Made by a program: the position numbers and the translations under genes
Origin: Candidatus Freyarchaeum deiterrae
GTDB lineage: Archaea > Asgardarchaeota > Jordiarchaeia > Jordiarchaeales > Jordiarchaeaceae
Length of the DNA stretch: 64,000 bases
NCBI GenBank assembly: GCA_037305845.1
Contig: CP147778.1
Span: 2,432,001-2,496,000, forward strand
Direction: 5' to 3'
Notes under the pieces: generated by a model
The model's database searches: none
Told to the model about the DNA's origin: nothing
What the model saw: the letters and a program-made list of their open reading frames with translations, nothing else
Shown here: positions 2,236-64,000 of the stretch, piece by piece
Position numbering within the stretch: the stretch's first letter is position 1
Layout of the letters: each line of letters opens with the position of its first letter

Positions 2236-2827
2236 TTATTCGAATTTGAGCATATAGCTTCTTCTATCTCCAAACTTTTTGTCAATATCGTCAAGTGTTC
2301 GTCTCAATGAAAAGATCTGCTGGTAAGCATTATCAAATTTACTCGATTCGAGTTCATCTTTAAGAGACTTTATTTCGCCTTGAAAAGTTTGGATATCATC
2401 TAAAATCGATGAATCGAATTCATACATTCTGTCAAGTTCTGGTTCACGAATTTTTACTGAGTCAAAAAAACCACCATAACCATAGTCAGCGTGGTTTATT
2501 CTCTCAGCGACCCTGTCTACGAGCGCCATCAATCTATCCATCTGCTCCCAAGTATTATTGACTTTATAATCCACAAGCATCTCCTGTACAAGATTAAGGT
2601 CACTTTTAGAATCACTGAACTGCTTGAACATGTAGTTCCGTAAAGCTTTATCCGCCTCTCTACGTATTTCCTTTGCCTTGTATCCATGTTGGCCGAGCAG
2701 AAGTAACTCTTACTGCTCAGTAACCAGGGATTACAAAGGCAACTTTCTCCAATAGGCTTCTGTTGGACTGTTCTCTTACTTCGCCTTTAATCTTCTCTGC
2801 TGTTGTTTTCTCTTTCTTACTAAACAT
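2236..2827 (-). CDS. Conserved hypothetical coiled-coil protein, spliced: join(complement 2720-2827, 2236-2688), 186 aa
   Basis: Exon 1 from ATG 2827 reads MFSKKEK...LLEKVAFVIPGY. Exon 2 reads HGYKAKEIRREADKALRNYMFKQ..., in frame with ORF 2236-2631. Joining gives IPGYHGYKAKEIRREADK. Co-oriented with and just upstream of the SPFH gene. Confidence 0.85.
2689..2719 (-). other. 31-nt BHB-type intron in a protein-coding gene
   Basis: Minus strand: atccct-GGTT-AC^T-gagcag-taagagttactt-ctgctc-GGCC-AA^C-atggatac. It shows a 4-bp helix, two 3-nt bulges, an inner stem and outer exon-exon pairing. It begins with an in-frame TGA. Confidence 0.85.
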
Positions 2828-2943
2828 TTTAACAACCCCATAATCGTTGCCGTACACATAAACTTCATACATCATGCTCTTAAAAAGATTTCATTACGAG
2901 CAAGAATAATAGAAATGCTCTTAAAAGATTTACTATGGATTAG

Positions 2944-4345
2944 CAAGAAAGCCCTAGTCCCTTTAGGGTGGGGGATGAATTGCGGGAGTTTAAATACCGA
3001 AAAAGGAGGAAAAAGGGGGAGTGAAAAGGGTATGCGGATAAACTGGGGTTTGAAGCCTACCCGCATCGGACTCGTTATGAATGAGGGAGAGTTGCGCATT
3101 TGAGAAGGACTAACACCTTCCGGCTGGTTCCAGCAAAGGAGCAGAAGCAGAGACTTTTCAGTTTAGCCGACAACTGCTCCAAAATGTACAACGAGATAAA
3201 CCATAAACGCAGACAATCATTCTTCTCAGGCAGATTCGACTGGAACACCGACGAACAATACCACAAATACAAGGGGTTAGTCGGCTCCGCCACCGCCCAG
3301 CAAATCACACAAAAGAACAACGAAGCCTGGAAATCATACTGGGCACTCCTAAAGAAGTGGAAAAAGGGAAAGGTGGAGAAGAAACCCAAACCTCCGAGAT
3401 ACTGGAAGGATCGCGAGACTGGAAAAAGACCCCTTAGAATCCTGGTAAGGTGCGACAGCTACCATCTGGAAGAAAAAGCCCTCAAACTCCCTTTCGGACT
3501 AAAAACGCAGTGGAGGGGCAGAAACAGGTGGAAAGGCGGTAAACAGGGCAGACTCGAAATAACCTATGACGAACTCTCGGAGAAATGGTACGCCTACATG
3601 CCAGTAGAGATCAAACCTCCTCTACACCAGCAACAGCAGCAGCTGAAAGGAAAAGAAAAGGAGGCGTACGTGGATCTGGGAGTGAAAGTCCCCATAATGG
3701 CGAGTATAGATTGGGAAGTCTTCGGCTACCGGGCGAATCCCATGCTCTCGGACTGGTGGTACTGGACACACAGAATAGCGGAACACCAGTCAATCCTGAA
3801 AGATGTAAACAATCGGTCAACCTCAAAGCTGTTAAAATCCTACCATAGGATGAGGCAGAGAAGATTCAGGAACAGTGTCAACGTGATGGTGAGGGACTTC
3901 GTTGAAAAGTGCTGGAACAGGGGAGTCTCGGAGATAGTCTGCGGAGATTTGAGAGACATAAGAAGCAGCGCCAACTTCTCAAGGAGAAGCAACTCCATGA
4001 TTCACAACTTCTGGTCGGTAGGATACATAGTAAGGAGGATAGAAGAAGTAGCAGAGGAGTACGGGATAAAAATAACTAGAGTTGATGAGAAAGGAACATC
4101 ATCAGAATGTCCGAGGTGCGGCTCAAAAAGAATCGTTAGAAGCAAAAGAATGTTCAGGTGCCGGGACTGCGGACTGGAAGCACACCGAGACGCCGTAGGC
4201 TGCGTAAACATAGGGCTTGCTCACCAACAAAAAGAAAAAGAAAAGGATGCGGAAGCCGTTAACAGGGCGGTGACACGCCCCACACTTCTAACAATAACTG
4301 CAGAAGTGTATAACTCCCTACCTTTCAAGGAGGGGAGTATGTCAG
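2944..4345 (+). mobile_element. IS200/IS605-family element carrying tnpB only (IS1341-like); ends approximate
   Basis: Left subterminal hairpin CAAGAAAGCCCTAGTCCCTTTAGGGTGGGG (2944-2973). Right hairpin AACTCCCTACCTTTCAAGGAGGGGAGT followed by ATGTCAG (to 4345). No tnpA in the element. Confidence 0.7.
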
Positions 4346-4356
4346 TAATCAGGTAA
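3100..4356 (+). CDS. tnpB: RNA-guided endonuclease TnpB
   Basis: N-terminal 'RTNTFRLVP...YNEIN' helix region, RuvC-I 'AYVDLG', zinc finger 'TSSECPRC...FRCRDCG', RuvC-III 'AHRDAVGCVNI'. Confidence 0.92.
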   Translation: MRRTNTFRLVPAKEQKQRLFSLADNCSKMYNEINHKRRQSFFSGRFDWNTDEQYHKYKGLVGSATAQQITQKNNEAWKSYWALLKKWKKGKVEKKPKPPRYWKDRETGKRPLRILVRCDSYHLEEKALKLPFGLKTQWRGRNRWKGGKQGRLEITYDELSEKWYAYMPVEIKPPLHQQQQQLKGKEKEAYVDLGVKVPIMASIDWEVFGYRANPMLSDWWYWTHRIAEHQSILKDVNNRSTSKLLKSYHRMRQRRFRNSVNVMVRDFVEKCWNRGVSEIVCGDLRDIRSSANFSRRSNSMIHNFWSVGYIVRRIEEVAEEYGIKITRVDEKGTSSECPRCGSKRIVRSKRMFRCRDCGLEAHRDAVGCVNIGLAHQQKEKEKDAEAVNRAVTRPTLLTITAEVYNSLPFKEGSMSVIR

Positions 4357-15597: not shown

Positions 15598-17133
15598 TTA
15601 TTTTTTAACGGGGATTGCGTACATTTTTCTGAATTTTTCTAGCATCGCTCTTGGAGTCACTGTTTCTCTCGTGTATCTGGGTAGCTCCTTCTCGATTCCC
15701 GAAAGGTACTTTGCAATACTCTTCAACTTCTCAATGTCGTACCTAGACATCATAGCAATGGTTTCCATCTGGGGGCTGCCTCCGCCGTGAAGGCCCGCTA
15801 CCTGACTAAGTCCCGCCATTTCTGAGCCTATCGCACCTTCTATAAATCGGAAGAGTCTATGCTGGTTTTCTGCGGAAATCTTCGGATTTCTCATCATGTA
15901 CTTGTTTACCAGATCCCCTGTTTCCTCATTGTAGAAATCTCCCTCAAGGGGCAGAGTGACCGATAAACCTCCCGCAAGGTCAGCTACGGTCTTGTACTCG
16001 TTGTATATCTCCTCACCCGCCAGCCTTCTACCCGCATTGGTTAAAATCTCGTCGGGTATATAAGTGCCGCTGGGAGCCTTCTCAGCACGGTAGGCGCTAG
16101 CCTGGCCGGCGGCGAACACCAGTTCCGCCACACCTATCAGGTGAGACAACTTTTCTTGAACATGTTTCTCTTTCTCAATCCCGTTATACTCCGCAACCAG
16201 AGCTGCCGTGCTACTCAAAACTTCGGACACCGCTGGTTTACAGCCAGTGTAAGAATGCCTGTGGTAGTGAGCGAAGAGCAGAGCGAGAAAACCTGCGTAA
16301 GGAGTCACCTTCGGATCCTCATTCCCATTCATAAAGACTCTCTCTTTGGGCACAAAGACATCATCGAAAATGGTGAACGATTCAACGTCCCCTAGGTGGG
16401 CTGCAGGGGCGTCCAAATGCTTCCTCTTATGATGGTACCCTGGTCTGCAAAGAAGCTTCACACCATCCGTGTCCGCGGGGATAGCGAATGCAACAGCGTA
16501 ATCCTTATCCTTGTCAGTCATCATCCTTGTAGGAATAGCTATAATCTCATCCGCGTAAGGAGCAACGGTATTACAAAGCTTCGCACCCCTAACTATAATA
16601 CCATCCTTCCTAGTTTCCACTACCCTAAGATAAAGGTCCGGATCCACCTGTTCACTAGGCCTCTTCATCCTGTCGCCCTTAGAATCAGTCTGAGCACAGT
16701 TACCAGTAAGATCATTCTTCTGGAAATAATCAAGAAACTTCAAAAATCTCTTGTTATAATCCGTGCCAACCGCTTCATCCATCTCATAAGTTACAACGGA
16801 CAACGCATTCAAACTATCGATACCCATACATCTCTGAATACACCCACCAACACGATGACACAAAACCCTAGTCATCATCTGCTTCGCAAGAAGATCCTCC
16901 TTACTCTGATGAATATGAGTAAACCGGTTAATCTTCTCACCAGAAATATGTGACGTAGCAGTACACAAGTCCTCGAACTCTGGATCGTTAGCTCTATCAT
17001 AAGTCTCCTTAATAATATTAATACCACCCTGAAGCCGAGGGTCACTCCTATCCACTTTTTCACCATCAATGTACACATTAGGCTTCATATCAAGCAAACG
17101 ACTGTAATAGTCCTCATAAGTTTTAATACCCAT
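15598..17133 (-). CDS. 4-hydroxybutyryl-CoA dehydratase-like protein (HpaB/AbfD family)
   Basis: 'GGCIQRCMGID' (CxxxC), 'AQTDSKGDR', 'HYHRHSYTGCK' and 'HGGGS' match [4Fe-4S]/FAD AbfD motifs. ATG at 17133 follows GGAGG. Confidence 0.85.
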   Translation of the reverse strand: MGIKTYEDYYSRLLDMKPNVYIDGEKVDRSDPRLQGGINIIKETYDRANDPEFEDLCTATSHISGEKINRFTHIHQSKEDLLAKQMMTRVLCHRVGGCIQRCMGIDSLNALSVVTYEMDEAVGTDYNKRFLKFLDYFQKNDLTGNCAQTDSKGDRMKRPSEQVDPDLYLRVVETRKDGIIVRGAKLCNTVAPYADEIIAIPTRMMTDKDKDYAVAFAIPADTDGVKLLCRPGYHHKRKHLDAPAAHLGDVESFTIFDDVFVPKERVFMNGNEDPKVTPYAGFLALLFAHYHRHSYTGCKPAVSEVLSSTAALVAEYNGIEKEKHVQEKLSHLIGVAELVFAAGQASAYRAEKAPSGTYIPDEILTNAGRRLAGEEIYNEYKTVADLAGGLSVTLPLEGDFYNEETGDLVNKYMMRNPKISAENQHRLFRFIEGAIGSEMAGLSQVAGLHGGGSPQMETIAMMSRYDIEKLKSIAKYLSGIEKELPRYTRETVTPRAMLEKFRKMYAIPVKK

Positions 17134-17843
17134 AACATAACTTCCTCCTAAAACAGAACACAAGAACAAAACACAATAAATTATTATGAAAACAATGTAA
17201 AAAACAGTTATAAAAATTCCCCTAAATAAACCTTTACACCAACACAAAACAAAAACAAATAGAAATCCAAATCAGAAAAACGAAACGAAAAACCAAAAAT
17301 AAAAAACACTCACAGAAAAGAAAAGAAACAATCAAAATAAAAAAGATGAAAGAATCCACAATAAATTGAATCTTTTCATGTTACTGTCTTCGCTAAAACA
17401 GAATTGCTTTAATGAATAGAAAAGAGTAGGAGTAGATTTTTCATACCTCTTTCATCCGACGTTACATCAGATGGGAGTACATCCTGCCTATCATCTCAGA
17501 AGCCATGGGCGGAATGGTGCCATACATCTCAATCTATTTTTACAAACTCATTTACCAATGGCAAGGTCAGCCGCAGCCACAATCGCCACGTTCCTACCAT
17601 TATAATCCAAAGTTCACTGCAGAGACAAGATGCTGCGTGATTAGCCTTTTATGAAGTCTTTCTATGAAAATTGTACAGAAGCGAAATAGAATATTCACAA
17701 TGTACGAGTTAAACGAAGACAGCCTCCTTGCCAACCGAGATAAAACATCCCACTAATTCCACCAACCAAATTTACAACGTAACACAGTTAAGATAAGTTT
17801 AAAAATTCGAAACATACAATCCCCACAAGAGAGGAGAGAAAAA

Positions 17844-19319
17844 TTGAACCCTGCAGACGAAAATAAGGATGCAGAAATCGATAAGATGATAGAAGAAATT
17901 AACAAGGCAATACTCAAAAACCCCAAAACACAAAAAGAAACCATAGACAGCATACAAAGCACAATAAACCAAACAGAAAACATAGGGGTTGTGGGGCGGT
18001 GCCTCACCGATGTCGCTAATGCAAGCCCTGAGCTAGCGGAGAAACTAGCCAAAGCCATAAATTTGAAAACCCTAGCCAGAAAAATAGACCAAACAAAAGA
18101 TATACGGGATTTGGGGTGGTGCCTCATCGAGGTCGCTAGAGCAAGCCCTGACCTAGCGGAGAAACTGATACCGAGTGTAGCCAGAAAAATAGACCAAACA
18201 GAAGACATACATGCTGTGGGGGACTGCCTCAACAGTGTCGCTAAGGCAAGCTCTGAGCTAGCGGAGAAACTAGCCAAAGCCATAAATTTGGAAACCCTAG
18301 CCAAAAAAATAGACCAAACAGAAAACATAGATAATGTTTGGTTGTGCCTCCTCGGGGTCGCTGATGCAAGCCCTGAGATAGGGGAAAAACTAGCCAAAGC
18401 CATAAACACGGAAAACCTAGCCAGAAAAATAGACCAAACAGAAGACATACGAGCTGTGGGGTCGTGCCTCTTCGGGGTCGCTAGAGCAAGCCCTGAGCTA
18501 GCGGAGAAACTGATACCGAGTGTAGCCAGAAAAATAGACCAAACAGAAAACATAGAGGCTGTGGGGGAATGCTTCTTCGGGCTCGCTAGAGCAAGCTCTG
18601 AGATAGCGGAGAAACTAGCCAAAGCCATAAATTTGGAAACCCTAGCTAGAAAAATAGACCAAACAGAAGACATATTGGCTGTGGGGCGGTGCCTTCCCGA
18701 CATCGCTGGAGCAAGTCGTGAGACAGTGGAGGAACTAGCCAAAGCCATAAATTTGGAAACCCTAACCATAAAAATAGATCAAACAGAAGACACAGATCAT
18801 GTGGGGGTGTTCCTCTCCTTTGTCGCTGAAGCAAGCCCTGAGCTAGCGGAGAAACTGATACCGAGTGTAGCCAGAAAAATAGACCAAACAGAAGACATAC
18901 ATGCTGTGGGGTTATGCCTCGCCTTTGTCGCTGAAAAAATCACTGAGCTAGCAGAGAAACTGATACCGAGTGTAGCCAGAAAAATAGACCAAACAGAAGA
19001 CATACATGCTGTGGGGCGGTGCCTCACCGATGTCGCTAATGCAAGCCCTGAGCTAGCGGAGAAACTAGCCAAAGCCATAAATTTGGAAACCCTAGCTAGA
19101 AAAATAGACCAAACAGAAGATATACGGGATTTGGGGCGGTGTCTCATCGATGTCGCTTATGCAAGCCCTGAGCTAGCGGAGAAACTGATACCGAGTGTAG
19201 CCAGAAAAATAGACCAAACAGAAGACATAGAGGCTGTGGAGTGGTACCTCGCTGATGTCGCTAAAGCAAGCCCTGAAATAGGAGAAAAACTAGCCAAAGC
19301 CGTAACACGGAAACCCTAG
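17844..19319 (+). CDS. Helical tandem-repeat (HEAT/alpha-solenoid-like) protein; C-terminus truncated by a 1-nt deletion
   Basis: Twelve in-frame units of KIDQTEDIxxVGxCLxxVAxASPELAEKL plus a linker (AKAINLETLAR or IPSVAR); a 13th unit continues in another frame. Confidence 0.8.
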   Translation: MNPADENKDAEIDKMIEEINKAILKNPKTQKETIDSIQSTINQTENIGVVGRCLTDVANASPELAEKLAKAINLKTLARKIDQTKDIRDLGWCLIEVARASPDLAEKLIPSVARKIDQTEDIHAVGDCLNSVAKASSELAEKLAKAINLETLAKKIDQTENIDNVWLCLLGVADASPEIGEKLAKAINTENLARKIDQTEDIRAVGSCLFGVARASPELAEKLIPSVARKIDQTENIEAVGECFFGLARASSEIAEKLAKAINLETLARKIDQTEDILAVGRCLPDIAGASRETVEELAKAINLETLTIKIDQTEDTDHVGVFLSFVAEASPELAEKLIPSVARKIDQTEDIHAVGLCLAFVAEKITELAEKLIPSVARKIDQTEDIHAVGRCLTDVANASPELAEKLAKAINLETLARKIDQTEDIRDLGRCLIDVAYASPELAEKLIPSVARKIDQTEDIEAVEWYLADVAKASPEIGEKLAKAVTRKP

Positions 19320-19410
19320 CAAAAAACATAGATCAAACAGAAGACACATGGGCTGTTATACATTGTGTCTCACGTGTTGCTAGTGCGAGTCTTTTGGTTT
19401 GGGGGAAGCT
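17961..19410 (+). repeat. Coding tandem repeat array of mixed 120-nt and 105-nt units (13 units)
   Basis: Near-identical nucleotide blocks (AGAAAAATAGACCAAACAGAAGAC; GCAAGCCCTGAGCTAGCGGAGAAACT) recur at 105/120-nt spacing. Confidence 0.9.
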
Positions 19411-19708
19411 AGTTAGCCTGAATAAACAGGGAAGGCACGACGAGAAAGAAGCACAAAACAGACGATTTTATAGCTTTAATGCGTCTCTCGGAAGTCTATC
19501 TTTTTCTCGGCGATTCTGATAGGAGTAAAGAGGCGGCTGAGAAAGCTTTAAATCAATAAAAACAAGCCAAAACAGAGAAAAAACACACAACAACTGAAAC
19601 CCAATAATCACATAAACAATAAGACCACACAAACAAAAAACCGTCAAACAAAAACTCAAAAAACAGAGAATCAAAATAAAAAGATAAAAAGAAAAGAAAG
19701 GAAAAACC

Positions 19709-20110
19709 CTACTCAGTCGTCATATCGACAACCCATAGCATAGCCTTCCGATCCGAAGTAGCGAGCTCGTAAGTAGTAGTCATCTCAAGAGCATCCTTAG
19801 GACAAGACTCAACACACTGCTCGCAAAATAAACAACTACCAATATCGCATACAGGCAGTTTGCCGGGTTTGTTTTTTAGTTCTGGGGGGTAGTTTTCGGG
19901 CCAGTCTGTCATGGTTATTGCCATTGAGGGGCAGTCTTTGGCGCATGTTCCGCATCCTACGCATCTTTTGAGGTATAGTGTGTGTCTTCCTCTTAGGTGT
20001 TCGTTTGGTGTTAGTTTTTGGAAGGGGTAGAATACTGTTGCTGGTTTTCTGGGTAGGTTTCTTAGTAGTTCGTTTTCCATTCTTCCTGGTCTGACCATGT
20101 TGTTTTTCAC
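19709..20110 (-). CDS. NuoI-like 2x[4Fe-4S] subunit
   Basis: CVGCGTCAKDCP and CLFCEQCVESCP; 'RGRH' motif. Confidence 0.9.
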   Translation of the reverse strand: MKNNMVRPGRMENELLRNLPRKPATVFYPFQKLTPNEHLRGRHTLYLKRCVGCGTCAKDCPSMAITMTDWPENYPPELKNKPGKLPVCDIGSCLFCEQCVESCPKDALEMTTTYELATSDRKAMLWVVDMTTE

Positions 20111-20120
20111 GCTCCTATTA

Positions 20121-21395
20121 TTATATTAGTACTAGTAGCCATAGCATTAGGTAGTAGCTTGCTTGCCATCCGAGTAGGTCGAAGTAGAATACTACTTCTA
20201 GTGCTATTATGTTTAGGAATGCTAGTGGGATTAGGTATTTCCATGAGCCTTTGACTACTTGGTCTATTCTGAATCTTGCGAATAGTGTTCTGAGGTTTGC
20301 TATTACGAATATTATTGCGAAGACTTTTACTAGGAACCATCCGGTGCCGATGAGGTAGCCCCAGGGGAATGCTCCCATTAGTCGGTCTAGTTGTGATAGT
20401 CCGATTTGGCTTCCTGGGCCCCAGGGTCCGCCTAGGAATAGTGCTGCTGCTAGTCCTGCGCCCCATACGTATTCGAGGTCGGCTGATAGTCGGAATATTG
20501 CTAGTTTTCTTCCGGATATTTCGGTTTGCCATCCGGCTACTATTTCTGTGTGGGCTTCTGGTATGTCGAAGGGTACTTTTTCCATTTCGGCCATTAGTGA
20601 AATTATGAATACTGCGAATGAAACGGGTGCTAGTAGTATGAATGGTATGCCTAAGGTTGATTGGAGTTGGGTGATGTTTGCTACTGTTAAAACCGAGAGA
20701 CCTGATGCTGGAATTACTGTTGATAGTGTTGCTAGTGCTGATGGGTAGTGTAGTCCTAGAGAGAGCATGATGTTGTTGACCTGTATTGGTCCGGAGTAGT
20801 AGTATCCTAATATGATTGCTGGGGTTATGGCTGATAATACGAAGGGTATTTCGTAGGCTATGAGTTGCATGCCGGCTCTGGCTGTTCCCACTTCGGCGAA
20901 CCTGTTGGTTGAGAACCAGCCGGTAAGGATTACTGTTAGGGCGAATATTGTGGAGAGGAACAATAGTGCTATGAGGTCTCCTTCGAAGCTTATTACGCCG
21001 CTGTTTGTGTATATTGGGATGAACATTAGCATGACTAGGCCTAGTGTCATTGCTATGATTGGGGTTGCGGCTAGGCTTCGTGCTTCCGCGCCGCTCTGTA
21101 CTACGTCTTCTTTGGCTAGTAGTTTGACGAGGTCGGCTACTGGTTGTAGTACTCCGTGGTATCCGGTGTGGAAGGGTCCAACCCGGTTCTGTAGTCGGGC
21201 GTAGAGTTTTCGGTCGTACCATTCCGCAAAGAGTGATACGCCTATTACGAATAGGATGCCTGGAAATATGATTATTTTAAAGAGATCTAGCAATGGGTTG
21301 CTCTGTTGCTGAAGTAGGTATTGAAAGGCTAGGTTGGGGTAGCCATATTTTATGTATAAGTAGAGTTGAATGTACAATTGTAAGTTAACGGCCAT
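20121..21395 (-). CDS. NuoH/complex I subunit 1-like membrane subunit
   Basis: 'DRKLYARLQNRVGP', 'LQPVADLVKLLAKE', 'PFDIPEAHTEIVAG'. Confidence 0.92.
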   Translation of the reverse strand: MAVNLQLYIQLYLYIKYGYPNLAFQYLLQQQSNPLLDLFKIIIFPGILFVIGVSLFAEWYDRKLYARLQNRVGPFHTGYHGVLQPVADLVKLLAKEDVVQSGAEARSLAATPIIAMTLGLVMLMFIPIYTNSGVISFEGDLIALLFLSTIFALTVILTGWFSTNRFAEVGTARAGMQLIAYEIPFVLSAITPAIILGYYYSGPIQVNNIMLSLGLHYPSALATLSTVIPASGLSVLTVANITQLQSTLGIPFILLAPVSFAVFIISLMAEMEKVPFDIPEAHTEIVAGWQTEISGRKLAIFRLSADLEYVWGAGLAAALFLGGPWGPGSQIGLSQLDRLMGAFPWGYLIGTGWFLVKVFAIIFVIANLRTLFARFRIDQVVKGSWKYLIPLAFLNIIALEVVFYFDLLGWQASYYLMLWLLVLI

Positions 21396-21398
21396 TTT

Positions 21399-22577
21399 TT
21401 ACCACCTTTTCTTTTCGTAAAATTCAATACCATATTTTCTTAGGCTTTCTATGTCCATTGTCCAAGTTTTTTCTTTTTCTGTGTTGACGAATGTTACTCG
21501 GTCGGTGCAGCTTAAGCACGGGTCTATGGCTGCGATGACTATTGGTACGTCTGCGATGTAGCCTCCCTTCAGCATATATAATACTGAGGGCCAGTTTGCG
21601 AGTGACGGTGTTCGTATTTTTACTCTTTCGGGTTTGTCTGATCCGTTAGCTTTGATGTAGTAGATGAGTTCACCACGGGGGGCCTCGTATCTGCTTACCA
21701 CTTCTCCCTCTGGTACACGCCTTTTTAGTTTGAGTCGGATGTCGTCCTTTGGGAGATGGTCTAGCATCCATTCTACCATGTTGCACGACTGTAGTGTTTC
21801 CAGAATGCGTACCGCTACTCTTCCGAACACATCGCAGGAGTCCCAGGTAATTACGTCGAAGGGTACTTCAGCGTAGGCGGCGTTTGGGTCGTCTTTGCGG
21901 CCGTCCATGTTGATTCCTGAGGCTCTTAGAGTGGGTCCTACTGCTCCCAGTTTTCGTCCCACTTCTGGTGGGAGTACTCCTACGCCTTGAGCTCTTTTCA
22001 GAATGGTGGGCTCGTTGACGCAGAGCTTGAGGTAATAGTTCATTCTTTCCTTCAAGTATTCCATGTCTTTCTTGATTGCTGGGATTTTATCCTTGCTTAT
22101 GTCTCTTCGGACTCCTCCAATCGTGTTCATGGCGTAGTTTACTCTGTTTCCCGAAATCAGTTCAAGATCGTTCATGACGATTTCACGGTCTCTCCAGGTG
22201 TAGTTGAAGAGGGTGTCGAATCCTATTTCATGTCCTGCTACACCGAGCCATAGCATGTGTGAGTGAATTCTCTCTAACTCGCATACAATGGTTCTTATGT
22301 AGAGCCCCCTTCGGGGCACTTCTTCGTCGAGTAACTCTTCCACTCCTTGGGTGAATGTTGTTGTGTGAGAGTGAGAACAAATACCGCAAACTCTCTCGAA
22401 GAAGTATATGTCTCGAACGTAGGGCCTTAATTCGCCTGATTTTTCCATTCCTCGGTGATTGTATCCTAACCTAATCTGGGCATCCACAACCTGTTCTCCA
22501 TCAACTTCAATGGTGAAGTTTACCGGTTCCTTCAGGGCTGGATGCTGAGGTCCTATTGGTATTTTAACGGTCGTCAT
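21399..22577 (-). CDS. Group 4 [NiFe]-hydrogenase large subunit
   Basis: GPQHP, L1 'ERVCGICSHSH', 'EAPRGE' and L2 'DPCLSCTDR', followed by a 32-aa C-terminal extension. Confidence 0.92.
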   Translation of the reverse strand: MTTVKIPIGPQHPALKEPVNFTIEVDGEQVVDAQIRLGYNHRGMEKSGELRPYVRDIYFFERVCGICSHSHTTTFTQGVEELLDEEVPRRGLYIRTIVCELERIHSHMLWLGVAGHEIGFDTLFNYTWRDREIVMNDLELISGNRVNYAMNTIGGVRRDISKDKIPAIKKDMEYLKERMNYYLKLCVNEPTILKRAQGVGVLPPEVGRKLGAVGPTLRASGINMDGRKDDPNAAYAEVPFDVITWDSCDVFGRVAVRILETLQSCNMVEWMLDHLPKDDIRLKLKRRVPEGEVVSRYEAPRGELIYYIKANGSDKPERVKIRTPSLANWPSVLYMLKGGYIADVPIVIAAIDPCLSCTDRVTFVNTEKEKTWTMDIESLRKYGIEFYEKKRW

Positions 22578-22580
22578 TTT

Positions 22581-23093
22581 TTATTCAACTCCTTCTGGCA
22601 GCCAATCTTTGCGCAGAGGATACACTCCCTCTGGAAAGTCATCCGGCAGGATGAAGCGTTCCAGATTAGGATGATTCTCAAAAACTACTCCGAGAAGGTC
22701 GTGTATTTCCCTCTCGTAAAAAGTGGCTGCGGGTAGTATATCTACAATTGTTTCAATTTTGGGATTTTTCTTAGGAACTTCTGTTCTGACAGAGGGGTTT
22801 GTGCGGTATCCTTGATGCTTGTACAGGTGATATATGACTTCCAATGTTTCTCCCTTGTCAACGCCGGTTATTGTGGACAGGTGTTGTAAGTCCCAGTTGT
22901 CTTTCATCCACTGGATTACCTTTCTGTGGTCTCCGGGCTTTACTCTGATGAACATTCTTTTCGGTCTCGGAATCCATATCTCGACGGCTTTTCCGAACAC
23001 TTTTTCTAGCTCAGCCTTCATTTTTTCCTCCTCTTTTGCGGGAGGTTTTACTTTAGGCTTTGCTTCTTTCTTTTCTTCTCCTTCTTCTGACAT
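22581..23093 (-). CDS. NuoC-like subunit
   Basis: 'FYEREIHDLLGVVFENHP..RFILP..YPLRKDW'. Confidence 0.92.
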   Translation of the reverse strand: MSEEGEEKKEAKPKVKPPAKEEEKMKAELEKVFGKAVEIWIPRPKRMFIRVKPGDHRKVIQWMKDNWDLQHLSTITGVDKGETLEVIYHLYKHQGYRTNPSVRTEVPKKNPKIETIVDILPAATFYEREIHDLLGVVFENHPNLERFILPDDFPEGVYPLRKDWLPEGVE

Positions 23094-23098
23094 CTGTT

Positions 23099-23533
23099 TT
23101 ATCCTCCCTTTAGTTTTCCCAGTAGTTTTGCAACTGCGTCAATTATCGCTTCGGGTTTGGGAGGGCATCCGGGTACGTACATGTTAACTGGAATTATTTT
23201 GTCGTATCCTCCCTCGATGTTGTAGCATCCTTGGAAAACGCCTCCAGTTATGGCACAGTTTCCGACGGCGATGCAGAATTTTGGTTCCGCCATTTGCTCG
23301 TAGAGGCGTTTGAATCTGGGTGTCATCTGTTTGGTTATTGAGCCTGTGCCTACCATCACGTCTGCGTGTCTCGGTGAACCTACTAGGAGTATGCCGAAGC
23401 GTTCTATGTCGTATTTCGGCATTAGGGCGGCGAGAACTTCTATGTCGCAACCGTTGCATGCCCCAGTGTTCATGTGAAAAACCCAAGGGGATTTTACCCT
23501 TGACCAAGTTACAAGTCTATCTTTAAGTCCCAA
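23099..23533 (-). CDS. Hydrogenase small subunit (NuoB-like)
   Basis: GACNGCDIE, SPRHAD, GNCA..GG, PGCPPKPE. Confidence 0.93.
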   Translation of the reverse strand: MGLKDRLVTWSRVKSPWVFHMNTGACNGCDIEVLAALMPKYDIERFGILLVGSPRHADVMVGTGSITKQMTPRFKRLYEQMAEPKFCIAVGNCAITGGVFQGCYNIEGGYDKIIPVNMYVPGCPPKPEAIIDAVAKLLGKLKGG

Positions 23534-23550
23534 TTATTACACCACCTTAA

Positions 23551-23868
23551 CTATTTCCGGTATAAGACCAATACTGCTGCTATTGTAGCAAAGGCCACGA
23601 ATACTCCACCATAGAGTGGATTCGAGAAGGCAGAGGTGAATATCACAAAACCCGCCGTTTCAAGTATTGTGAAGAAAACCGCATAGTAGAACAATTGCAG
23701 TCTGAATTGGAATTTCTCTGCGGGGTATTTCTCTCCACAAGCGTAAGCCATCATTTTTTCCTTGCTTTTCTTTCCTTTAGGTGCCAAATATCTTGAGGAA
23801 GCGTATAACGCGCAGGCACCAATAAAACTGATTAATATTGCTAATCCAAATGTGGCAATATCGGGCAA
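23551..23868 (-). CDS. NuoA-like membrane subunit
   Basis: 'K..AYACGE', 'FYYAVFFTILE'; 3 TM. Confidence 0.85.
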   Translation of the reverse strand: MPDIATFGLAILISFIGACALYASSRYLAPKGKKSKEKMMAYACGEKYPAEKFQFRLQLFYYAVFFTILETAGFVIFTSAFSNPLYGGVFVAFATIAAVLVLYRK

Positions 23869-24196
23869 TGTCTGTTTGCACCTCCAACTCTAAAGTAATA
23901 GCGATTAGATACCTTTACCTATTTAAGTTTCACTCTTACAGATATTTTATCAGATTAAAAGGTTTTCCTCGGCTCTTTCCGTTTTTTTAAAGTTTTTCTT
24001 CACAGTTTTTTACGTTTTTCGGAATTCTTTTTCCTACGTTCCAGAATTCGAATATATTTTAAATAGGTTTGGCAAAAATTTTCCAATTGGATAATAATAG
24101 TTCATAAAAAACATTTTTTATTGGGAGTAAAAACGCAAGGTTTTTTTAAACGAAAGAATATTATATTCAAAATCACAGATATTTCTGTCTGATTAG

Positions 24197-24649
24197 GTGT
24201 TGGGTATGGAGGTAACGTTTAAGTTAGAAGGTGAGAGCGTCACCGTAAAACTTCCTGAAAACTTGTACTATAACAATGATCACTGCTGGGTGAAGGCAGA
24301 AAACGGAAAAGCAAGAATCGGATTCGACGACTTCGGCCAAGCAACAGCTGGGAAAATCCTTTTCGCAAGACTTAAACCCGAGGGGAAGCCCATTGAGGTG
24401 GATAAGAGCTTCGGTTCAATAGAAACCGGAAAATGGGTAGGACCACTAAAAGCTCCAATCAGTGGCACTATACTAGAAGTCAATCCTGAACTAAAAAAGA
24501 AGCCCACCATTATCAACGAGGATCCCTATGGAAAAGGATGGTTAGTAGTTGTACAACCAACAAATCTAAAACCAGAATTATCCAAACTTGTCACCGGTGC
24601 CGCTATCAAAAGTTGGATAGACAAAGAAATAAAAGAAAGAATAAAATAA
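24197..24649 (+). CDS. Lipoyl-carrier protein, GcvH/LbpA family (ATG at 24206 also possible)
   Basis: 'HCWVK..ARIG.DD', lipoyl-Lys motif 'GSIETGKWVGPLKAP', 'NEDPYGKGWL'. Confidence 0.88.
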   Translation: MLGMEVTFKLEGESVTVKLPENLYYNNDHCWVKAENGKARIGFDDFGQATAGKILFARLKPEGKPIEVDKSFGSIETGKWVGPLKAPISGTILEVNPELKKKPTIINEDPYGKGWLVVVQPTNLKPELSKLVTGAAIKSWIDKEIKERIK

Positions 24650-24683
24650 ACCAACATTTCACTCTTTTTTTAATTTTTGAGGC

Positions 24684-25781
24684 TTGAAAGAATTGGAAGA
24701 ATGGCGACTCTTAGACTTGGACGCCTTACCCGCAACAGACACTCAAACCATATACGAGGCTGTCGCATCAGCCAGAAGCAAGAACCTTGTTCCCGAAACT
24801 CTCATACTCTGCTACCCCAAAAGTCCGCTAGTTTGTATAGGATATCACCAAGATTTAGAGAAGGAAGTAGATTACTCTTTTTGCCAGTCTCAGAGAATAC
24901 CAGTGGTTCGGAGAATCCTGGGTGGTGGAGCAGTGTACCTAGACCAGGGGCAACTCTTCTACCAAGTAATTATTGATAAGAAAAACCCCAAAGTTCCACT
25001 ATCAATAAATGATTTCTTTCGGAAGCTTCTAGAAGCACCCACAAAAACCTATCAGGAACTGGGTATCCCCGCGGTTTACAAGCCAATCAATGACATCGAA
25101 GTAGGCGGTAGAAAAATCAGCGGTAACGGTGCCGGCACTCTGGAAAATGTTGTAAACATAATGACTGGTAACATCATAATGGACTTCAACTTTGAAATGA
25201 TGGTGAAAATCCTAAAGGTTCCGAGTGAAAAATTCAGGGATAAAGTGGCGAAAAGCCTAGAGGAGCGAATGACCACCATAAAAAAGGAACTGGGACATGA
25301 GGTCCCCCTAGAAAAAATCAAATCGTTGCTCATAAAAAACTACGAGGAAACTCTAGATATAAAACTGCGAAAAGGAATGCTCAACGATTGGGAAAAGAAA
25401 ACCATGAGAGGCCTGAAAAAGAAATACCAATCCCAAGAATGGTTAAACATGGTATTTTTGCGTCATCCGGACCTAGCACGAAAAGTAAAAATTTCGAGCA
25501 TCGCATACGTTTCCGAATCCGCCTACAAAGCACCCGGAGGCCTAATCAGGGTCACCCTGAGGATAGATGAGGACAAAATAAAAGAAATAATGCTCAGTGG
25601 AGATTTCTTCATATATCCCGAGGACAAATTAAGCGAGCTAGAAAAAAGACTTACTGGGGTTCCCACCGATATAAGCGAAATAAATCAAGTTATCCAAACC
25701 TTTTACAAGGAAGAAAAAATAGAAACTCCCGGGGTAACCGCGCAGGACTTTCTAACAGCAATACGCCAAGCAACGGAGTGA
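24684..25781 (+). CDS. lplA: Lipoate-protein ligase (catalytic plus C-terminal accessory domain)
   Basis: 'VRRILGGGAVYLD', 'NDIEVGGRKISGNG', 'YKAPGGLIR..SGDFF'. Confidence 0.9.
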   Translation: MKELEEWRLLDLDALPATDTQTIYEAVASARSKNLVPETLILCYPKSPLVCIGYHQDLEKEVDYSFCQSQRIPVVRRILGGGAVYLDQGQLFYQVIIDKKNPKVPLSINDFFRKLLEAPTKTYQELGIPAVYKPINDIEVGGRKISGNGAGTLENVVNIMTGNIIMDFNFEMMVKILKVPSEKFRDKVAKSLEERMTTIKKELGHEVPLEKIKSLLIKNYEETLDIKLRKGMLNDWEKKTMRGLKKKYQSQEWLNMVFLRHPDLARKVKISSIAYVSESAYKAPGGLIRVTLRIDEDKIKEIMLSGDFFIYPEDKLSELEKRLTGVPTDISEINQVIQTFYKEEKIETPGVTAQDFLTAIRQATE

Positions 25782-25949
25782 AAAGTCAAGTTTTCTTTTT
25801 GAAAAAGAATACTCATTACTAAGAACCGTTTTTGAATTTCTGTTCAAAAATCAGACACATACAGTTCATAATTTTTTTAAATTTTGGTAATCTTTATTAT
25901 ACAGCGTTATCCTAATTGAACACTCAACCAAAAGTGGAGGTGTAAACGG

Positions 25950-27005
25950 CTGGAGAAGTATAGGTTAACTAAGGCAGTAACTCTTCATGGATGATCATGT
26001 AAACTACCTCAAACTGAACTGAATAACCTTCTAGAAAATGTCGGAGTGAGAAGAGACCCCTCAGGAAGACTAATTGGAGGAATCGGGGAAGACGCCGCCG
26101 TGGTCAAGATTCGGGATGATCTGGTACTCATAGAAACTGTTGATTACATGACCCCGAACGTTGATGATCCCTATATCCAGGGCAAGATTGCTGCGGTAAA
26201 CGTTACGAACGATGTGTATAGTGTAAATCTACTTGATTTACATGCATAAGCAATAGGCGCAACCGATGTTGTGAGCTTCTTAGCGATACTCGGAGTTCCT
26301 GAAAATATGCCTATTAAAATAGCTGAGGGAATGCTGAAGGGAATAAACGATTTACTAAGCGAACTGGGCACTACAACCATCACCGGCGGTCACACCATAA
26401 TAAATCCCTGGCCCTTAGTCGGAGGAGTGGCTTCAGGAATAGCTCATCCAGACCAGATAGTAACCCACAAGAATGCTCGACCCAACGATGTGGTGCTGCT
26501 TACTAAACCGCTGGGTACTCAGCCAGCGATGGCTTGTTATAGAGGACTCCTAGATCCCAGCGTCGCAGAGCAAATACTGGGATTAATGTCCAGAAAGGCA
26601 GCAGAAGAAATTGTTCAAAAGGGGATTGACATTATGACTAGGACAAATAAGCCGGTGGCTGAGGCGATGTCAGCTGTGAAACCTCATGCCTCTACAGATG
26701 TCACCGGATTCGGACTTCTCGGGCACTCTCGAAATTTAGCAGGTGAAAGCAAGGTTAACATTGACATTCACACAATTCCCATAATCAAAGGCACTTTGGA
26801 GCTTTCGGATCTTTTCGGATACGGACTTCAGTCTGGTGAGTCAGCGGAAACCGCGGGTGGAATGATTCTAATTGTTTCAGAAGACCAGAAGGAAAGCTTG
26901 GAATCAGAGTTGGACAAAGGTTCTGTTAATCACTACGAAATAGGTACCGTGAGGAAGGGGTCTGGAAAAGTTGATACCAGCAAGGCGGAAATACTTGAAG
27001 TTTGA
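25950..27005 (+). CDS. selD: Selenophosphate synthetase, selenoprotein, spliced: join(25950-26219, 26250-27005), 341 aa, Sec at codon 15 (TGA 25992-25994)
   Basis: From CTG 25950 (GGAGG at 25936-25940): EKYRLTKAVTLHG-U-SCKLP...GEDAAV...ETVDY...DPYIQGKIAAVNVTNDVY|AIGA...GGHT...LTKPLGT...TDVTGFGLLGH...ETAGG. The ORF track splits this into 26046-26249 and 26271-27005. Confidence 0.93.
26220..26249 (+). other. 30-nt BHB/BHL-type intron in selD
   Basis: GTGT-AT^A-gtgtaaatc-tactt-gatttacat-GCAT-AA^G. It ends in an in-frame TAA, and excision restores NDVYAIG (SelD 'SDxYAMG' motif). The outer exon helix is not well formed. Confidence 0.85.
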
Positions 27006-27008
27006 GCG

Positions 27009-27069
27009 GCAGTAATGATCTGAGGATTAAACCCTTATTTGGGAATCTAAAGAGAACATTCCATCCTGC
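27009..27069 (+). promoter_or_regulatory. SECIS element (eukaryote-like, AUGA/AAA/GA, with apical mini-stem) in selD 3'-UTR
   Basis: ATGA (27015-18), stem tct-ga-ggatt, AAA (27029-31), ccc-ttattt-ggg, aatct-aa-aga, GA (27054-55). Flanking gcag/ctgc can pair. It starts about 10 nt after the selD stop. Confidence 0.8.
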
Positions 27070-27353
27070 AAGGGTGGTGCCGCTACTCCAATCAATTTAC
27101 TTATACGAAAATTGTTTTTACTTTACTTTGAGAATATTTTCTTTAATCAAGCTTTATTCGTTATCTTTTAACAAATTTATGTTGATGCATCTACTAAATT
27201 GGGCTTATACAGCTTCTTTTAGCTCACAGTTGCCCCTTAAAGACTTTTTTCGGCGTTTTTTGGCACGTAAGAGTTAAATATAACATCACATCCAAGCTAC
27301 TGCGTTTAAAATAAATAAAAAAAATAGTGAGTGATAAAATAGAGGCGACTTGA

Positions 27354-27608
27354 ATGATTGACCCAACGATTATTCACGTGGCTCTCTTAGCGCTAGTCAT
27401 ATTCTTCGGCGTACTTGCTGTGGAACTTAAAAGACTTGATCACGCAGTAATAGCTTTTGCATCAATGAACGTTGTCTTAGGGGTTCTATTCTACCTACTC
27501 TACGCACCTTGGGTAGCAGTGTTTCAGTGGCTAATCTACGGAGGAGCAATAGTAGTTCTCCTACTAGTTACAGTAAGCCTCACAAGACAAGCACGTGAGA
27601 GTGAGTAA
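27354..27608 (+). CDS. NuoJ N-terminal-like / MbhD-like small membrane subunit
   Basis: 'L.HAVIAF...LLYAPWVAVFQWLIYGGAIVVL'. Confidence 0.8.
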   Translation: MIDPTIIHVALLALVIFFGVLAVELKRLDHAVIAFASMNVVLGVLFYLLYAPWVAVFQWLIYGGAIVVLLLVTVSLTRQARESE

Positions 27609-27610
27609 AA

Positions 27611-27949
27611 ATGAACAGAGAAACATTAATAAAAGCCACAAGAATAGCAATCGGCATAATTCTCGCAGCATTCGTCATAGTTATAGTACTTAAAGTATTC
27701 GTGGCATCTCCCTCTGCCTTTTATCCCTTCTACTTGACGCTTTTCAACCCAATGAACAACGCTACATTAACACAAGCTCCAGTTTGGCAAATAGCCTTCT
27801 ATGAAGGCAACTACCTATGGTCAAACAGAGTCATTGACACAATGTCTCTAGCTGTGGTATTTGTCGCCACAGGTCTCGGAGCAGCAATACTTCTTCGAGC
27901 AGAACCTGAAGAAAAAGAAACAGAAGAAGAAAAAGGAGCTGAACACTAA
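27611..27949 (+). CDS. Small membrane subunit (NuoJ C-terminal / MbhE-like)
   Basis: 2 TM with 'LW.NR.IDT' motif; lies within the operon. Confidence 0.7.
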   Translation: MNRETLIKATRIAIGIILAAFVIVIVLKVFVASPSAFYPFYLTLFNPMNNATLTQAPVWQIAFYEGNYLWSNRVIDTMSLAVVFVATGLGAAILLRAEPEEKETEEEKGAEH

Positions 27950-28380
27950 TGGCATTACCAGTATCCCCAGTATTATATCTGGCAACCGCGGCGATTCTCT
28001 ACGGAATCGGACTTTATGCAGTCGCGACCAAGAGAAACGTCATAAAAATTGTAATCGGTATCGAAGTCCTAGTTGCAGCAGCTCACCTGAACTTCATAGC
28101 TTTCTCAGCATACCGATGGTTCACCCTGTGGACGCAGCAAATATACTCTGTTCTCCAACTTGGCGGAATAACTGATCCATATCTAACAATTGTTGGATCA
28201 TACATTATGACTGCGAACTTCTACACACCCCTATTCGTAGACCCGCTCGCACACGTTTTCGTCATAATATCCATCGTCATCGGTGGCTGCGTAGTAGCAA
28301 TAGCCTTGTCATTCATAGTGAATCTCTACAAGCACTACGGCACACTGGACTCACAACAAATGAGAAAACTCAGATGGTAG
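27949..28380 (+). CDS. NuoK/MrpC-like subunit
   Basis: 'GIGLY....KRNVIKIVIGIEVL...HLNF', 'LYKHYGTLD...LRW'. Confidence 0.88.
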   Translation: MALPVSPVLYLATAAILYGIGLYAVATKRNVIKIVIGIEVLVAAAHLNFIAFSAYRWFTLWTQQIYSVLQLGGITDPYLTIVGSYIMTANFYTPLFVDPLAHVFVIISIVIGGCVVAIALSFIVNLYKHYGTLDSQQMRKLRW

Positions 28381-28389
28381 AGGTGAAAA

Positions 28390-30783: not shown

Positions 30784-30795
30784 GAGGATGAAAAA

Positions 30796-34402: not shown

Positions 34403-34560
34403 AACCTAATCCCTCTTTTTTATTTTTTCAATTTTATGTTATTCTGATATTCTAATTTTCGTGATTGTCCTTTGATTTTTTTATGTAATACATTTTTTTC
34501 GTTTTTTTGGAAAAGCTTTAATTGCGGTTTTGAGTACACCATTTTCTTGGAGGGCTTCCT

Positions 34561-35025: not shown

Positions 35026-35088
35026 TTTTTTATATAAGTAATTATCAACGTAGGAGAAGCCTCAAAAAAATGTTAGCGGGGTAAACCA

Positions 35089-61752: not shown

Positions 61753-62328
61753 ATGAGACTTCTGGGCATTGTTTGCAGCCCGCGCAAAGGCGGAAACACG
61801 GAAATTCTGGTTAAAGAAGCCTTGAAACCGGCTCAGGAAGCCGGTTGGGAAACCGAGTTATTTTTAATGTCAGAAAAACAGGTGGCTCCCTGTGATGCTT
61901 GTGGAGCTTGTTTCAAAACTGGCTCCTGTGTTATTAAAGACGATATGCAAGAACTGTACTCGATGCTTGAACAGGCCGACGGTGTGATAATCGGCAGCCC
62001 GGTCTACTTCGGCAATGTCAGCGCACAGGCCAAAGCGGTCATGGACAGAACCTATGCCATAGCGTTTAAACGAGCACTAAAAGACAAAGTAGCCGGCGCC
62101 ATCGTCGCTGCCAGAAGGGTGGGGGCAGCGCAAGCACGCTCCTTAATATACTCCTTCTGCATTATTCACGGAATGATAGTAGCCGCAGGAGGAATAGGAT
62201 ACGGGGGAGACCCCGGTGATGTCTTAAAGGGAGTAGGAACCATCGGCCCCTCAGCTACGGCAGAAGCACGGCAAGTAGGTATCAGAGTCATGAACCTGGC
62301 GGAACGGCTGACCAAAAGCAAGAAATAA
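61753..62328 (+). CDS. Iron-sulfur flavoprotein / flavodoxin family protein
   Basis: 'GIVCSPRKGGNT', 'CDACGACFKTGSCVIKDDM', 'GSPVYFG'. Confidence 0.9.
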   Translation: MRLLGIVCSPRKGGNTEILVKEALKPAQEAGWETELFLMSEKQVAPCDACGACFKTGSCVIKDDMQELYSMLEQADGVIIGSPVYFGNVSAQAKAVMDRTYAIAFKRALKDKVAGAIVAARRVGAAQARSLIYSFCIIHGMIVAAGGIGYGGDPGDVLKGVGTIGPSATAEARQVGIRVMNLAERLTKSKK

Positions 62329-62598
62329 ATCCATTACAACATTTAAAATGAGCAATAAAAAGGAAGATTATGCCTCAGGTTTTTATTAGTGCATAACTTC
62401 TACATTGCGTAAATCCATATTATCTCCAATTAAGGAGGGGAGGGTGGAGATTATTGTCTCTCTACCTACCATAAATATCATCCACGAACATTTAGCTACA
62501 TAAAAAAATGAAAAAAAAGGGAAAGAGAAATAAATAGCAAAAAAGTAAAGTTCACAAACCAACAATAATGTTACTCAACAAAAAAGGTGAATGTAAAA

Positions 62599-64000
62599 AT
62601 GAAGCTATTCGAACCAATCAAGATAAACACCCTCCAGCTTAAGAATCGTATCACTATGCCCGCCATGCATCTGAATTATATGCGCGTATGATTACTTTGT
62701 ACGCGTAGGTTAAGCAGATCAGGGCTATGTGACTCAGCGATTAATTGATTTTTACGCTGAACGGGCAAAGAATGAGGTAGGTTTGATTCTTGTCGGAGGA
62801 TGTTACACGGAAGTCCTTGCGAAAGGATTCGATACAATGATTAGAATAGATCAGGATGATGCTATTCCAGGTCTTTCAAAACTCACTGAAGCTATTCATG
62901 AGGGTGGTGCCAAATGTGGTGCGCAGTTATACCACTCGGGAAGATACTCGTTTTCTGCGGTGATAGGTCAGGCGTCTGTGAGTGCTTCGGCAGTACAATC
63001 GAAATTCACAGGTGAGACTCCAAGGGCTCTGACGAAGGAGGAAATTCTACAAACTGAGGAGAATTTTGGTGAGGCTGCTCTTAGAGCTAAAAAGGCGAAT
63101 TTCGATGCTGTGGAGCTTATTGCTTCGGCGGGGTACTTGATTCCGCAGTTCCTTTCGCCGCTCACTAATAAGAGGGATGATGAGTATGGTGGTGATCTTA
63201 GTGCTAGGGCGCGGTTCGGTGTTGAGTGTATTCAGGCTATTAGGGACAAGGTTGGGGATGATTATCCCTTGATTATGCGGCTTTCTGGGGATGATATGAT
63301 GCCTGGGGGTAACACTTACCGGGAAGTCAGGGAATACGCTCCTTTATTCGCGGAGGCGGGTGTGGATATGTTTAATGTTACTGGGGGTTGGCATGAGTCG
63401 ACTGTTCCTCAGATTACTATGAATGTTCCGCGGGGTACCTATGTTTGGCTGGCTGAGAATGTTAAAGAGGTTGTTGATGTGCCGGTTATGGCGTGTAACC
63501 GGATTACTGATCCTTTGATGGCGGAGCAGGTTCTTCTTGATGGTAGGGCGGATCTTGTGGGTTTGGGTCGGGGTTTGCTCTGTGACCCGGAGTGGGCTAG
63601 GAAAGCTAAGGAGGGGCGTTTCCGCGAGATTCGGCAGTGTTTGGGTTGTAATCAGGGTTGCTTTGACCATGTGTTTGCACTTCAGCCTGTGGAGTGTTTG
63701 GCGAATGCTGCTGCGAGTCGTGAGGCGGAGTATCGGATTAAGCCTGCTGCTAAGCGTAAAAAGGTACTTATTATTGGTGGCGGACCGGGTGGTATGGAGG
63801 CTGCGAGGGTTGCGAAGCTTAGGGGTCATGATGTTACTCTTTACGAGAAGACTTACACGCTGGGCGGTCAGCTGAACCTAGCCGCGGCACCACAAGACAG
63901 GCGGGAGTTCAAGAATCTGGTTGACTACCTGTCTTATCAAATGAGTTTGCTCGGTGTTAACGTGGTTTTGGGTAAGGAGGTTACTCCTGATGTTGTCAAG
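62599..64000 (+). CDS. NADH:flavin oxidoreductase (Old Yellow Enzyme / FadH-like with Fe-S and FAD domains), spliced: join(62599-62679, 62714->64000), runs off the window
   Basis: MKLFEPIKINTLQLKNRITMPAMHLNY|ADQGYVTQRLIDFYAERAK...QLYHSGRY...GYLIPQFLSPLTNKRDDEYGG...CLGCNQGC...IIGGGPGG. Missing from the ORF track. Confidence 0.9.
62680..62713 (+). other. 34-nt BHB-type intron in the OYE/FadH-like gene
   Basis: atctg-AATT-AT^A-tgcgcgta-tgattactttg-tacgcgta-GGTT-AA^G-cagat: a complete helix-bulge-helix-bulge-helix. In-frame TGA inside. Confidence 0.9.

Follow-up and report, generated by a model that had tools for sequence, protein, structure and literature searches.

Do Asgard archaea interrupt ordinary protein-coding genes with introns of the kind that occur in their transfer RNA (tRNA) genes, and if so, how widely? 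The question is raised by a stretch of 64,000 nucleotides (nt) from Candidatus Freyarchaeum deiterrae, referred to here as the window (G000:C1:2432001-2496000), which forms part of a single-contig genome of 3,576,204 bases (G000). Three of its genes, a conserved gene of no known function (site 1), selD (site 2) and a gene for an OYE/FadH-type flavoenzyme (site 3), each carry a hairpin insert, of 31, 30 and 34 nt respectively. Judged from their structure, their boundaries and their distribution among related genomes, these inserts are very probably bulge-helix-bulge (BHB) introns in pre-mRNAs, spliced by the endonuclease EndA together with RtcB. An earlier note on this DNA had supposed an Asgard origin, and the relatives of the genome bear this out, as they comprise Ca. 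Jordarchaeum madagascariense and metagenome-assembled genomes (MAGs) labelled Jordarchaeia, Jordarchaeales and Freyarchaeota.

Structure and boundaries of the three inserts

All three sites share a common order from 5' to 3': a helix strand of four exon bases (H1), a 3-nt bulge, a stem-loop, a second strand of four bases that pairs with the first (H2), and a second 3-nt bulge. With the cut marked by a caret, site 1 is laid out as GGUU-AC^U-(GAGCAG..CUGCUC)-GGCC-AA^C, site 2 as GUGU-AU^A-(GUGUAAAUC..GAUUUACAU)-GCAU-AA^G, and site 3 as AAUU-AU^A-(UGCGCGUA..UACGCGUA)-GGUU-AA^G. Each site has two 3-nt bulges on opposite strands with a 4-bp helix between them, and an inner helix of 6-9 bp. The outer helix measures 5 bp at site 3, is interrupted at site 1, and is lacking at site 2. 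H1 and the first two bulge bases sit in the upstream exon, namely GGUU and AC at 2720-2725 (site 1), GUGU and AU at 26214-26219 (selD), and AAUU and AU at 62674-62679 (OYE). The positions of the exons and inserts are collected in Table 1.

Every insert contains an in-frame stop, which is a TGA in the first codon at site 1, a TAA in the last codon at site 2, and a TGA in the fourth codon at site 3. When each bulge is cut behind its second base, 31, 30 and 34 nt are excised and the reading frames are joined at all three sites, and the junctions that result are equal to those of intron-less orthologues (PGY^HGY, DVY^A.G and GY^ADQGY). In selD, exon 1 carries the match to Pfam AIRS up to position 48 and exon 2 takes it up from 49; in the OYE gene, positions 1-22 of Pfam Oxidored_FMN fall in exon 1 and the match resumes at 29 with the second residue of exon 2, with the junction at about 26^29. 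Both profiles are thus continuous once the insert is removed. Shifting both cuts by +1 or -1 introduces a stop codon or loses a conserved Ala or His. The earlier note had claimed the coordinates and lengths of the three inserts, the BHB geometry with cuts after the second bulge nucleotide, the restoration of frame, and a stop in each insert. On direct re-reading the coordinates, lengths and stops match throughout, and the frames and orthologue junctions agree with the geometry and cuts at every site. Its further statement that the inserts are dissimilar in sequence is upheld by a genome-wide comparison, in which no second copy of any of the three was found and no sequence common to them was seen.

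Table 1. Positions of the exons and candidate introns in the window, and of the two EndA genes elsewhere in the genome
Feature	Position	Strand	Description
Site 1 exon 1	2720..2875	-	conserved Asgard protein; ends ...VIPGY
Site 1 candidate intron	2689..2719	-	31 nt: U-GAGCAG-loop-CUGCUC-GGCC-AA
Site 1 exon 2	2236..2688	-	150 codons plus stop; begins HGYKAKEIRR
selD exon 1	25950..26219	+	ends ...NVTNDVY at Pfam AIRS position 48
selD candidate intron	26220..26249	+	30 nt: A-GUGUAAAUC-loop-GAUUUACAU-GCAU-AA
selD exon 2	26250..27005	+	251 codons plus stop; begins AIGATD at AIRS position 49
OYE exon 1	62599..62679	+	27 codons, MKLFEP...MHLNY
OYE candidate intron	62680..62713	+	34 nt: A-UGCGCGUA-loop-UACGCGUA-GGUU-AA
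OYE exon 2	62714..64000	+	gene runs past the window end to ~64615; begins ADQGYV
EndA paralogues	L065:1147-1779 and L066:1477-2070		G000:C1 ~1.92 Mb and ~1.73 Mb

Taken by itself, the motif carries no significance, being very frequent in its loose form. A structural census of the whole 3.58-Mb genome, which asked for the order H(4)-B(3)-stem-H(4)-B(3), a stem of 5 bp or more and a length between 14 and 160 nt, returned 210,983 matches, corresponding to about 1 per 34 nt per strand and to about 2e-4 per fixed position and length. The significance stems from the coincidence of the motif with boundaries that are fixed independently by orthologues. For the motif to coincide with three homology-fixed boundaries, the chance is of order 1e-11.

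Conservation and covariation of the selD insert

In G000, selD is a single-copy gene, the second exon of which matches the NCBIfam archaeal SelD model PRK14105 over positions 91-342 of 345. An insert is found at one and the same codon in all of the genomes of the class (Jordarchaeia/Freyarchaeia) that have an assembled junction (10/10). Within the genus, represented by six genomes, it always measures 30 nt, and a second family has lengths of 30, 31, 34 and 30 nt. Asgard genomes of other families have no insert in selD and read D.Y/F^A.G at this position. This distribution suggests that selD already had its intron in the common ancestor of the class.

When the selD inserts are aligned, 96.9% of cells are paired, versus 14-58% with the partner strand slid. 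Seven of the nine pairs of the inner stem have changed on both sides (for example from U-A to C-G and from A-U to G-C), and the covariation score was reached by none of 500 shuffles. The 4-bp helix pairs in 40/40 alignment cells. Both this helix (GUGU/GCAU, once GCAC) and the bulges (AY^A and AA^G) are constant, and the loops vary freely. Aligning orthologues for the presence or absence of inserts and for compensatory changes was a check proposed in the earlier note; its outcome is that the insert boundaries are the BHB cut sites and that the stem at selD covaries. Because it has no outer helix, the selD intron would represent the relaxed HBh' form, which needs an enzyme of broad specificity (PMC5829648).

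Both exons of selD are under strong purifying selection, with ratios of nonsynonymous to synonymous substitution rates (dN/dS) of 0.03-0.12 and synonymous sites near saturation. As the gene is well conserved and every copy of it carries an insert that blocks translation, the insert must be removed.

The first exon of selD also contains an in-frame TGA at 25992-25994, a selenocysteine (Sec) codon within the motif HG-U-SCK. All relatives examined, the intron-less Asgard families included, retain this UGA as part of HG-U-[SA]CK, which indicates that SelD in this organism contains selenocysteine itself. Neither ATG nor GTG nor TTG occurs from the upstream stop (25917-25919) to the Sec codon. A CTG at 25950, situated 8 nt after GGAGGTG (25936-25942), is kept in all six genomes of the genus; in one of these (G002) a stop precedes it by two codons, and in the second family an ATG stands four codons downstream of this point. 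This CTG is the probable start codon of selD.

Probable loss and gain at the other two sites

The protein encoded at site 1 has no significant match in Pfam, and its second exon gives a weak, sub-threshold match in NCBIfam, to the LIMLP_15305 family alone. Its insert stands at the same codon in G000 and the sister genome G002 (31 nt), in the Joint Genome Institute (JGI) metagenome contigs L130 (31 nt) and L132-134 (30 nt), and in the second family (27-29 nt). It is missing in G001, G003, G004 and G005, in a further JGI metagenome contig (L131) and in other families, and the intron-less orthologues read PGY^HGYKAKE. A three-gene tree places (G000,G002), with support of 89/86, as sister to (G001,G003,G004,G005), with support of 96/95, and the second family outside of both. 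On the basis of presence and absence on this tree, the simplest history would be one ancient gain and one precise loss in a subclade.

As at selD, pairing is maintained at site 1. Among nine distinct sequences, the 4-bp helix pairs in 36/36 cells and the first five positions of the inner stem pair in 44/45, with exchanges among AU, GC and CG; the bulges are AY^N and AA^C, with two variants. For exon 2, dN/dS is 0.06-0.09, and across the exons of all three genes it ranges from 0.03 to 0.12. The open reading frame (ORF) at site 1 opens at 2875, and the orthologues start at a Met equivalent to 2827 (MFSKKEK or MFGKKDKEK); a stop lies just upstream of that Met in the orthologue of G005. Given the starts of the orthologues, the protein is probably about 186 rather than 202 amino acids long.

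Structurally, the OYE insert is the most complete of the three, and its fold has a z-score of -3.7. Its outer helix of 5 bp (AUCUG/CAGAU) pairs 62669-62673 with 62715-62719, and the presence of this helix makes it the full hBHBh' form. The second exon, of 633 codons in all, encodes Oxidored_FMN plus a FAD/NAD-binding domain. The insert occurs in G000 only: the gene is uninterrupted in five congeners, in five genomes of the second family and in others, so that MHLGY^ADQGY in ten relatives corresponds to MHLNY-(34 nt)-ADQGY in G000. This points to a gain of the OYE intron on the branch leading to G000. The junction codons are Asn-Tyr (AAU UAU) in G000 versus Gly-Tyr (GGN UAY) in the ten relatives, and it is the change from Gly to Asn at 62674-62679 that created the H1 strand pairing with GGUU. 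It thus seems that the coding sequence changed together with the intron. No acceleration is visible on the G000 branch of this gene, for which dN is 0.08-0.09 to relatives versus 0.06 between two relatives.

Nothing resembling the OYE insert turned up in the rest of the genome, nor in 12 relatives when up to 3 mismatches were allowed. Two specific origins were considered and rejected. Duplication of the target, suggested by the likeness of GGTTAAG to the intron-less GGATACG, needs too many later changes. Derivation from a miniature inverted-repeat transposable element (MITE) finds no further copies, and the flanking heptamers, AAUUAUA and GGUUAAG here and the corresponding ones at sites 1 and 2, do not form direct repeats.

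Splicing enzymes of the lineage

The genome encodes two EndA paralogues above the Pfam cut-off and one RtcB. The EndA paralogues, of 211 and 198 amino acids, each have an N-terminal and a catalytic domain and are 32% identical. In a pairwise alignment, G-I-D-H-A-P of paralogue 1 stands against G-T-D-T-S-K of paralogue 2. The His of GIDH is the probable catalytic His, going by the catalytic triad of the M. jannaschii enzyme. The lack of this residue in paralogue 2 suggests a catalytic/structural pair. EndA of the heteromeric type has been linked to relaxed substrates and to the splicing of cbf5 (PMC5829648, PMC10485636).

For the Freyarchaeia lineage, the passages on introns in PMC11291895 give a proportion of 92-95% of tRNA genes with introns. 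The program aragorn recognises only 17 tRNA genes in the complete 3.58-Mb genome, several of them with implausible “introns” of 1.4-2.7 kb. This count indicates that most tRNA genes are too interrupted for standard finders, which is consistent with those passages.

A proposed splicing pathway

In the transcript, EndA would recognise the 4-bp helix flanked by two 3-nt bulges and would cut after the second base of each bulge. The enzyme is most likely an (alpha-beta)2 heterotetramer from the two paralogous genes. RtcB would then join the exons, and probably circularise the intron as well. The spliced mRNA alone would encode full-length SelD, the OYE-type reductase and the 186-residue conserved protein. 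The three introns would differ in age, with that of selD going back to the class ancestor, that of site 1 being equally old and lost in one subclade, and that of the OYE gene arising on the G000 branch. The structure, the boundaries, the covariation, the presence or absence in relatives, the selection on exons and the enzyme genes are observed; cleavage and ligation are what we infer from them.

Contigs from sequencing runs were compared with one 20-kb stretch of the window, 16001-36000, which includes the selD site. The DNA runs in which the window occurs are metagenomes from wetlands and freshwater sediments. In run X2, a DNA contig of 3.9 kb (25971-29870) shows no differences and contains the selD insert, and run X7, from another study, covers the bin with the selD insert, with no deletion reported. 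These contigs establish that the selD insert is in the DNA. The metatranscriptome runs X9 and X10 contribute 13 and 7 short contigs, all of them identical to the genome, which indicates that the organism is transcriptionally active in wetland samples. The RNA contigs cover parts of minus-strand genes at 20167-23058 and of plus-strand genes at 28492-33115.

Within selD, one RNA contig lies in exon 2 (26704-26882) and none lies over 26220-26249, which speaks neither for nor against splicing. Several other observations weigh against the proposed pathway. Each central helix contains two G-U pairs and is therefore weak; the minimum free energy fold lacks this helix at site 3 and at site 1 shifts it to another register, and site 2 is without an outer helix. 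The OYE intron is found in one genome only, and since this gene has paralogues, a recent inactivating insertion is less improbable for it than for selD and the gene at site 1.

Alternative explanations

The inserts could be inactivating insertions in pseudogenes or decaying genes, their hairpins being remnants of mobile elements with no role in expression. This explanation would fit the fact that every insert blocks translation of the unspliced frame, as well as the restriction of the OYE insert to one genome in which OYE paralogues exist. It is nevertheless very unlikely, as all three genes show strong purifying selection on their exons (dN/dS 0.03-0.12), and the single-copy selD has kept its Sec codon together with its insert in 10/10 genomes, with compensatory changes in the stem. 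The inserts have no second copies in the genome (nor, for site 3, in 12 relatives), and no target-site duplication was seen.

Harder still to credit is the notion that the ribosome bypasses the inserts by hopping during translation and that no RNA is spliced. The inserts are indeed short hairpins of 27-34 nt in coding regions, and a stop stands at or near the putative take-off point at site 1 (TAC-TGA) and site 3. The take-off and landing codons differ, however (TAC..CAA, TAT..TAA, and TAT..TAA read in different registers), and what has been conserved is the 4-bp helix with its two bulges, not codon identity. Moreover, the geometry is that of an EndA substrate, in a lineage for which the relevant passages of PMC11291895 describe such introns in nearly all tRNA genes.

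ORF finders list two ORFs at each site, as they would if the genes were truly split and two separate polypeptides were made and assembled. We give this possibility less credence again, since the break offers no start codon to the downstream pieces, and their first GTG, 6-8 codons in, would delete conserved motif residues; the upstream pieces are a mere 27-58 residues long, and the breaks fall within conserved motifs and within single Pfam domains. Assembly or sequencing artefacts, in favour of which no points were found, are practically out of the question, as the selD insert is present without differences in DNA contigs of two studies, the inserts at sites 1 and 2 recur in independent MAGs and JGI metagenome contigs, and what is presumed to be the same genome is described, in the portion of PMC11291895 that deals with it, as a curated complete Freyarchaeia genome checked with long reads.

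Frequency of such introns in the genome

If the three inserts are BHB introns, how many more does the genome contain? The earlier note had reasoned that three per 64 kb would imply many genome-wide. This extrapolation gained no support, since scans for a strict BHB combined with ORF joining gave no measurable excess over controls with shifted cuts. Filters on the joining of ORFs, coding potential judged by hexamers, the strength of the stem, the bulge motif (A[CT]N / A[AG]N) and the lack of a start for exon 2 were applied to the census, which even then showed no clear excess over controls in which the 3' cut was moved by 1-2 nt. Real introns read in an alternative register end up among these controls and contaminate them, and for this reason the scan cannot count introns and argues only against hundreds. 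The results are compatible with a genome-wide number in the tens, not the hundreds, and the density of three introns in one 64-kb window is well above the genome average.

A search guided by paralogues combined blastp of spliced candidates with tblastn of ORFs of at least 120 amino acids against the genome, with artefacts of self-hit extension removed. For lengths of up to 45 nt it found 27 loci versus 16 in controls, of which about half a dozen are convincing. Among the convincing ones are inserts of 28-35 nt with a good BHB shape at G000:C1 987059, 1125563, 1589387, 2636196 and 3320769. Once these are removed, paralogues align across the junctions, and the bulges include AA^A, GG^G, AA^T and AC^T. 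From their sequences, these five are likely to be additional mRNA introns outside of the window.

Of the broader proposal that an Asgard lineage routinely splices its mRNAs, the existence of mRNA introns has gained support from covariation, conservation throughout a class, a precise loss, a lineage-specific gain, selection on exons and the presence of the enzymes; the high genome-wide density has not, given scans without an excess. All told, it appears likely that this Asgard class routinely splices mRNAs with the protein-only machinery of tRNA splicing, that introns are gained, kept for as long as the class has existed and precisely lost, and that single-copy genes such as selD depend on this process.

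Significance and relation to known systems

The class-wide selD intron with its covariation, the loss at site 1 and the gain in the OYE gene would make intron turnover directly observable in the archaeal group closest to eukaryotes. If the proposed splicing is real, all selenoprotein synthesis in these organisms would depend on mRNA splicing, with selD in addition requiring UGA-to-Sec recoding and an apparent CUG start, and the closest relatives of eukaryotes would offer a state of “genes in pieces” in prokaryotes. In practice, genes of this kind come out of gene callers split or truncated, selD with its CTG start, Sec codon and splice being an example, and metabolic reconstructions of these genomes will consequently miss functional genes.

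Several known systems invite comparison. The tRNA introns of Freyarchaeia and Atabeyarchaeia (PMC11291895; bioRxiv 10.64898/2026.10.13.758758) come from the same lineage and presumably the same enzymes, and share the small size, the BHB or HBh' shape and the frequent gain; the passages of these papers on introns, splicing and BHB motifs deal with tRNA genes only and mention no intron in a protein gene. Translational bypass elements, such as those of T4 gene 60 and the mitochondrial byps, have matching take-off and landing codons, which are lacking here at each of the three sites. The splicing of HAC1 and XBP1 mRNA by IRE1 and RtcB in eukaryotes is likewise protein-only and non-spliceosomal, with ligation of the RtcB type and a change of frame. 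It differs in its endonuclease and recognition motif and is regulated by stress, and no homology of the cutting step is implied.

Beyond tRNA and ribosomal RNA, splicing by the archaeal enzyme has been described as known for “at least two archaeal genes” (review 2023, PMC10485636), and in the literature searched the only archaeal mRNA substrates are cbf5, in its coding region (PMC2738675), and HVO_1309, in its 5' untranslated region (UTR; PMC7714728). The HVO_1309 intron of Haloferax volcanii is also an mRNA substrate of the archaeal splicing endonuclease, but it lies in the 5' UTR, leaves the frame uninterrupted, is served by an alpha2 enzyme and is a single case (PMC7714728; PMC10485636). 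The cbf5 intron of Desulfurococcales and Sulfolobales (Watanabe 2002; Yoshinari 2006; Yokobori 2009, PMC2738675) is likewise a short BHB or relaxed-BHB intron in coding sequence. It is thought to be cut by EndA and religated, is associated with a hetero-oligomeric EndA, and has been gained and lost among related species. Its splicing has been demonstrated experimentally, whereas the present candidate introns are known from sequence. They also belong to other genes in another phylum, and there are several of them per genome as against one gene. As none of them is in the cbf5 (pseudouridine synthase) gene, they would work in a cbf5-like manner outside of the cbf5 intron family, such that three unrelated genes in a single 64-kb stretch, each with an intron in its coding sequence, would stand beside cbf5 alone in the literature searched.

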